The position numbers and the translations under genes are program-made. A DNA stretch of 64,000 nt from Candidatus Heimdallarchaeota archaeon (lineage in GTDB: Archaea > Asgardarchaeota > Heimdallarchaeia > JABLTI01), in contig JAHLVW010000108.1 of NCBI GenBank assembly GCA_019058275.1, positions 1-64,000 on the forward strand. Reading direction: 5' to 3'. The notes beneath the pieces are model-generated. The model saw nothing but the letters and a program-made list of their open reading frames with translations. It was not told where the DNA came from and did not search any database. Positions 24,345-24,421 of this stretch are shown one piece after another; the first letter of the stretch is position 1; the number at the start of each line of letters is the position of its first letter.

Positions 24345-24421
24345 TTCCCGCCTATGTTCCAAGCCTTCTTGGTCTTCGAGTTGGATGTACTCTGCAAGTC
24401 AGCATTGCTCATGGTCGGAAA
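24345..24421 (-). ncRNA. Predicted four-way-junction (cloverleaf) structured RNA/ssDNA directly downstream of the RAMP-HD gene
   Basis: Minus strand: closing stem TTTCCG-A-CC-ATG / CAT-A-GG-CGGGAA enclosing hairpins GCAA-N7-TTGC, GAGT-N7-ACTC and CCAAG-N4-CTTGG. Folded by eye. Confidence 0.5.

Follow-up and report, generated by a model that had tools for sequence, protein, structure and literature searches.

A three-domain RNA at the gene-edge end of array-less Cas5-HD/Cas7 islands in Heimdallarchaeota, tentatively a guide scaffold

Comparison of homologues identifies a structured 77-nt stretch beside the cas5-HD gene of this Heimdallarchaeota archaeon as domain II of a predicted ~180-nt, three-domain non-coding RNA (24496-24315, minus strand). 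The RNA is island DNA, not host DNA, and the features around it in the window (the whole 64,000-nt stretch analysed) are collected in Table 1. Our tentative reading, which we place close to an even prospect, is that the RNA serves as scaffold and 5' handle, with the flanking host DNA as spacer, and that it is aimed at empty alleles of the same site.

Table 1 Features of the island, its RNA and the adjoining host gene (positions in the window)
Feature	Coordinates	Strand	Remarks
Host gene	23115..24314	-	Unclassified family; single copy; 11/12 genomes of the family
Candidate spacer	24275..24314	-	First ~40 nt of host gene from GTG start
SD-like tail, candidate 5' handle, right island end	24315..24324	-	Consensus GGWGAYA
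RNA domain III	24325..24343	-	Short hairpin, variable sequence, A-rich loop
RNA domain II	24345..24421	-	11-bp bulged closing stem and long irregular hairpin
RNA domain I	24429..24496	-	Long hairpin within last ~25 codons of cas5-HD
cas5-HD fusion	24422..25405	-	Csm4-like RAMP and Cas10-type HD
cas7-like RAMP	25387..26316	-	PF03787, E 1.8e-7
Small divergent ORF	26395..26598	+	Placed like PF04014 genes of other copies
Three small cargo ORFs	27033..28158	+	No Pfam family; single copy in genome
Host gene's native SD and spacer, stranded at left junction	28404..28417	-	Matches pre-start-codon sequence of empty sites

A structured RNA downstream of cas5-HD

A sequence-only reading of this DNA had described the 77 nt as a three-hairpin cloverleaf with an 11-bp bulged closing stem, richer in GC than its flanks. 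The quoted letters were found at 24421-24345 on the minus strand, adjoining the cas5-HD stop, with a GC content of 49% against 28-34% in the flanks. The closing stem is kept across 29 aligned copies (80% of cells paired, two-sided changes in 7/11 pairs). The cloverleaf inside it did not hold up as the conserved fold, since the homologues favour a long hairpin. When the 77 nt are folded alone, the cloverleaf reaches -18.7 kcal/mol, which is 1.4 kcal/mol worse than the long hairpin at -20.1 kcal/mol, and the pair probabilities of its hairpins 1, 2 and 3 are 0.08, 0.9 and 0.2. Across homologues 43.5% of cells are paired in hairpin 1 and 68% in hairpin 3, compared with 91% and 98% for the long hairpin, and hairpin 1 was ruled out by folding and alignment together. 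In its 187-nt context the window copy has the cloverleaf as its minimum-energy fold (z -2.9), so that the choice of fold rested on the homologues. Hairpin 3 may be an alternative conformation, given that the cloverleaf is minimal in this context and that a hairpin-3-like loop motif reappears in the RNA of a second family. Folding against shuffled controls, the check that had been proposed, favoured the 77 nt alone just modestly (z -1.8).

The proposed scaffold size of 77 nt proved too small. The structured element extends over ~180 nt and reaches 75 nt upstream into cas5-HD, such that the 5' part of the RNA overlaps the end of that gene. Domain I has 93.5% and 91.9% of cells paired, with two-sided changes in 6/16 pairs, and is retained where the cas5-HD reading frame is stopped or shifted. 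In 19 of 25 aligned copies, domain II has a tandem GA motif resembling a kink-turn; in the window copy this motif is degenerate. Domain III, not found in the empty sites, has a mean best stem of 5.2 bp versus 3.4 in shuffles (P<0.05 in 14/25 copies). The sequence-only reading had also compared the 3' end of the 77 nt with the GAAAC end of CRISPR repeat handles; this end varies among copies, its last bases belong to another hairpin as the variable 5' arm, and the conserved tail sits ~25 nt further on.

For the whole element, which comprises 36 pairs, 88% of cells are paired and 17 pairs have changed on both sides, compared with ~40% pairing in slid controls. Covariation exceeds all 500 shuffles and the slid controls; kinship of the copies can inflate these counts and the shuffle comparison. 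A conserved, covarying structure is thus present downstream of cas5-HD homologues, as had been anticipated. Many of the pair changes are one-sided, to G-U, and together with the kink-turn-like motif they point to RNA rather than DNA. Gap placement in the plain alignment kept RNAalifold from recovering the closing stem. No tRNA or Rfam family scored above the gathering threshold for the RNA, and our literature search, which did not extend to the 2020 ARAMP paper, returned no description of it.

A covariance model gave 51 matches in 12 genomes, of which 50 lie in 11 genomes of the window genome's family and one in another family. The window genome holds 8 of these matches, and its own copy, which belonged to the training set, scores 163 bits. 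The matches track the distribution of cas5-HD, whose protein was found in 26 of the 61 genomes searched; the window genome alone has at least 8 dispersed cas5-HD copies or remnants, mostly followed by the same RNA element. The RNA stays with cas5-HD even in islands without a Cas1-like gene, and at many sites it is left as an orphan copy without island genes. The RNA of the second family, which the first-family model does not detect, has another sequence in the same order of hairpin, hairpin, hairpin, tail and gene edge, its fold being taken from single-sequence folding only. One orphan copy (L164:2730-2900, G006) precedes a glycosyl-hydrolase-like gene that is the upstream neighbour of the window insertion site. 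At the EF-2 site of several genomes (L075, L089, L118, L029, L030) the RNA is a divergent subtype, which keeps domain I intact but differs in domain II.

Island ends and insertion sites

In 10/10 relatives nothing of the RNA is present and the upstream glycosyl-hydrolase-like gene directly adjoins the host gene; the GTG start of the window host gene (24314) corresponds in the alignment to the TTG start of its orthologue at these 10 empty sites. The window island (~28403-24315) is accordingly ~4.1 kb inserted at the host start codon, with the native promoter and SD of the host gene left on its far side; the native SD is likewise stranded at the left at the RpoE1 site. The sequence-only reading had taken the DNA after the 77 nt for the leader of the host gene. 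This part of it fails, since the ~30 nt following 24345 are missing from 10/10 empty sites and are island DNA. The RNA is missing from empty sites not only of the window host gene but also of RpoE1, Snf7, S19e, M20, PfkB and ABCE1, and island-free relatives have no such sequence before the host gene, in keeping with an element-borne scaffold. An assembly artefact was rejected, as the stretch is covered end to end by unbroken contigs of run X5 and for the most part by those of run X6; run X1 may be the source. No RNA run is listed among the sequencing runs that carry it, a result without bearing on expression.

The tail itself is, by sequence comparison, island-borne. At the PfkB, M20, S19e and Snf7 sites the occupied tail differs from the empty leader, and a GGWGAYA-type tail also precedes tRNAs, reversed genes and pfkB, whose empty allele is without such a motif. 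With its own SD-like tail, the island lets the displaced host gene still be translated. As for the proposed layout of scaffold followed by flank, the sharp end and the unrelated host sequence after it stand at ~27 sites, which is the arrangement that an omega-RNA-like guide requires, whereas the flank had been placed too early: it starts ~30 nt past the claimed end, at the host start codon (24314). The candidate spacer has no other match in the window genome. Neither terminal repeats, inverted repeats, a target duplication nor a shared left-end motif was found in 12 islands, whose left ends are old and whose left junctions are often eroded.

In this family a tally by eye gave ~27 distinct sites, not independent of one another; at ~21 of them the island end lies no more than ~15 nt from a start codon, a stop codon or a tRNA end, and both orientations occur. 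By crude ORF calling, ~9-10% of intergenic positions lie that close (≤15 nt) to the next boundary. Some 15 sites end at start codons, including those of the window host gene, RpoE1, Snf7, RFC-S, EF-2, S19e, ABCE1, M20, PfkB, L37e and a roadblock gene, among others; in copies that were not used for training, the end coincides with a start codon or misses it by one base. The remainder comprise two tRNA 5' ends, two reversed tRNA 3' ends, two reversed stop codons and ~6 sites without a gene boundary. Selection for translation alone could explain the start-codon sites, and closeness to start codons can come from such selection plus erosion; it could not explain the tRNA and reversed sites, at least 6 boundaries where a ribosome-binding site is useless. 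At L072:6340-6480 and in L077, the flanking tRNA-Pro and tRNA-Asp genes contain introns.

Set against a close empty allele, occupied alleles of RpoE1 show 24/60 and 20/60 mismatches in their first 60 nt, compared with 11/210 and 19/210 further in (24/60 versus 11/210, P 2e-10). This 5' excess of mismatches looks like a co-conversion tract. It is clear at RpoE1 only; none was seen at S19e and M20, and a candidate tract at Snf7 was discounted, as a 5' excess occurs also between empty pfkB alleles. Several host genes after the element seem to start with ATT or ACG, namely RpoE1 (L104, L106, L108, L111, L113), Snf7 (L102) and an aRF1-like gene (L021); empty alleles of RpoE1 and Snf7 start with GTG, TTG or ATG.

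Island genes and a candidate guide mechanism

The HD part of Cas5-HD matches the fold of the Csm1 HD domain (Z 8.4, rmsd 4.0, 151 aligned) and the RAMP part gives a weak match to a Csm RAMP subunit (Z 4.2), while Foldseek alone returned no match for Cas5-HD at E≤0.001. In this strain cas5-HD is broken by a stop at codon 15 (25363-25361) and by HH in place of HD (24946), and cas7 by a premature TAG at 26274-26272, through which homologues read. Contigs of runs X5 and X6 have unbroken letters at all three places, TGG in the case of cas7. Since both stops and the HD-to-HH change are private to this strain, the window cas7/cas5-HD genes are best described as a recent pseudogene pair, predicted to be inactive here. 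The small ORF upstream of them is probably an AbrB/MazE-type regulator, judging by the position that it shares with PF04014 genes of other copies.

Full islands also encode an AbrB-type protein, a LAGLIDADG-HTH protein, a PD-(D/E)XK Cas4-like nuclease and a ~670-aa protein of Cas1/casposase fold. The last of these was left unplaced by Atlas, PDB-sequence and NCBIfam searches and was placed only by a fold search, in which its low-confidence model (pLDDT 56) best matched casposase 6opm (E 1.3e-5) and also matched Cas1. Its gene is present in related full islands and absent from the reduced island of the window. No CRISPR array was found at the locus (23-29 kb); the ordinary arrays of the genome lie on other contigs (C4, C26, C68), as does a cas6 (C26), and hairpin III is a conceivable cleavage site for a host Cas6. 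Some Cas5-HD copies (L072, L080) have a CxxC..CxxC zinc-ribbon insert between their RAMP and HD parts. Two tandem LAGLIDADG-AbrB blocks with a cas7 stub occur in L083, which suggests nested or repeated insertion at one tRNA-Asp site. The genome has ~20 LAGLIDADG-HTH genes of island type, and a broken one lies in the window at 38275-39834 (plus strand), apart from any cas7/cas5-HD.

Under a guide function, the RNA would be transcribed from the cas7-cas5HD operon on into the flank. Cas5-HD would hold the scaffold together with the last ~8-10 island bases as the 5' handle, and Cas7 would coat the following ~30 nt, which are host sequence. Cas7 backbone proteins coat single-stranded guides, and in type III systems pairing of the handle marks self; here, handle pairing with the occupied locus could do the same. 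The complex would then recognise island-free alleles of the same site, the Cas10-type HD domain would cut them, and the island would be copied in by repair, or kept. The site pattern would follow from this, since only an insertion at a gene edge would keep the gene intact while offering a target that is conserved. The Cas1/casposase-fold protein of full islands would probably create new sites. More broadly, and with somewhat less confidence, the locus may be an array-less class 1, type III-derived effector of two proteins and one long scaffold RNA, which takes its spacer from the neighbouring host gene and drives homing of Cas1-type islands into the edges of housekeeping genes. Put another way, and just as guardedly, Cas5, Cas7 and a Cas10 HD domain may here have been assembled to work by the logic of an omega-RNA system.

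The main difficulty with a flank-derived guide is that flanks in both orientations imply a DNA target, yet type III parts read RNA; type III complexes normally target RNA. Sense-oriented spacers would require a DNA or antisense RNA target, and no large subunit is present to open DNA. The RpoE1 tract, too, would make the spacer match its nearest empty allele poorly. The LAGLIDADG genes of many islands could drive homing without a guide, and could also explain this tract.

The strain-specific damage bears on an explanation that we regard as unlikely though credible, namely a fixed RNA partner without a spacer, where the RNA is an antitoxin or scaffold restraining Cas5-HD and the island an addiction or abortive-defence module. 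Three inactivating changes private to this strain, at places intact in two other runs, fit a costly nuclease, and the RNA persists alone at many sites; what such a partner leaves unexplained is the ending of the RNA at gene edges in both orientations and the retention of Cas7, a guide-coating backbone protein. The helices that tolerate G-U and the kink-turn-like motif, being features of RNA rather than DNA, argue in turn against a cis-acting end, in which the structure marks the island end for the Cas1-fold integrase, while the tail merely restores a ribosome-binding site. The structure also accompanies cas5-HD in islands without a Cas1-like gene, and the 12 islands searched showed neither a matching left-end motif nor inverted repeats or a target duplication. 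We consider such an end rather unlikely, even with the structure always the last feature of the island, a casposase-fold protein encoded in full islands and the SD-like tail at a normal distance from start codons.

Were the RNA instead a regulatory leader, the 5' UTR of a housekeeping gene whose expression is tied to the island by binding of Cas7/Cas5-HD or L7Ae, hindering island loss, this would suit the ~15 sites before housekeeping start codons, the displaced or deleted native promoter or SD, the position of hairpin III directly before the SD, and the odd ATT and ACG starts after the tail at RpoE1, Snf7 and aRF1. The same RNA stands before tRNAs and reversed gene ends, where translational leader control cannot act, and we find this explanation improbable. 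Highly improbable is that the RNA has no function, its conservation reflecting shared ancestry and survival beside essential genes. Related copies can inflate shuffle controls, and orphan survival can be deletion bias, but two-sided changes in 17/36 pairs set against slid controls near 40% pairing, a hairpin III that still pairs while its sequence is free, and a second family that repeats the layout with a different sequence all speak for function.

Should the flank act as guide, parts of class 1 systems would have been reused as in TnpB. This would bear on the passage of RNA-guided targeting between mobile elements and CRISPR, and the HD nuclease would be a very compact programmable one. The islands are unusual under the rival explanations too, being a family that puts its own ribosome-binding sites in place of those of housekeeping genes.

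Comparison with known systems

ARAMP (Asgard RAMP) loci are array-less type III derivatives (Makarova et al. 2020, as summarised in PMC8730458 and PMC12669027), with Cas5 and Cas7 homologues, a nuclease and, in most loci, a diverged Cas1 (aCas1). The window gene module fits ARAMP as so summarised: it pairs Cas7-like and Cas5-like RAMP genes with a nuclease domain, has no array at its locus and an Asgard-type host, and a diverged Cas1 is present in related full islands. These two summaries name no RNA component, gene-edge insertion or mechanism. New here are the junction at the empty site, the origin of the SD-like tail in the element and the gene-edge pattern in both orientations, as well as the second-family layout and the strain-specific inactivation. 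ARAMP is listed as array-less with its mechanism unexplained, and now that the end of the RNA and the empty sites are mapped, the mechanism is open to direct tests in a defined system of two small proteins, one RNA and one predicted target.

With the type III-A Csm complex (Csm1 HD, Csm3, Csm4) the island shares the Cas10-type HD fold and RAMP subunits; it differs in having no Palm domains, small subunit, array or cas6, and in the fusion of its HD to the Cas5-like subunit. A Cas1-fold integrase gene and some sites at tRNA ends recall casposons, from which the islands differ in that no PolB was seen and no terminal inverted repeats or target duplication were found in the 12 islands with their old, eroded left ends.

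In TnpB systems the omega-RNA overlaps the 3' end of the nuclease gene. The island resembles OMEGA (TnpB omega-RNA, IS200/IS605) in this overlap of a structured RNA with its nuclease gene, in an RNA that stops at the element end and is followed by a site-specific flank, and in orphan RNA copies. Its effector is a RAMP pair with an HD domain and not a RuvC protein (TnpB, IscB), it has no Y1 or serine transposase, no TAM was identified, the islands measure 2.5-15 kb and their junctions lie at gene boundaries. The locus is OMEGA-like in layout but, having no RuvC effector, is not OMEGA. TnpB linked to aCas1 appears in PMC10691335. Elsewhere in the window (36708-37880, minus strand), two ORFs resemble, by eye, pieces of an IS200/IS605 tnpB with a zinc-ribbon end.
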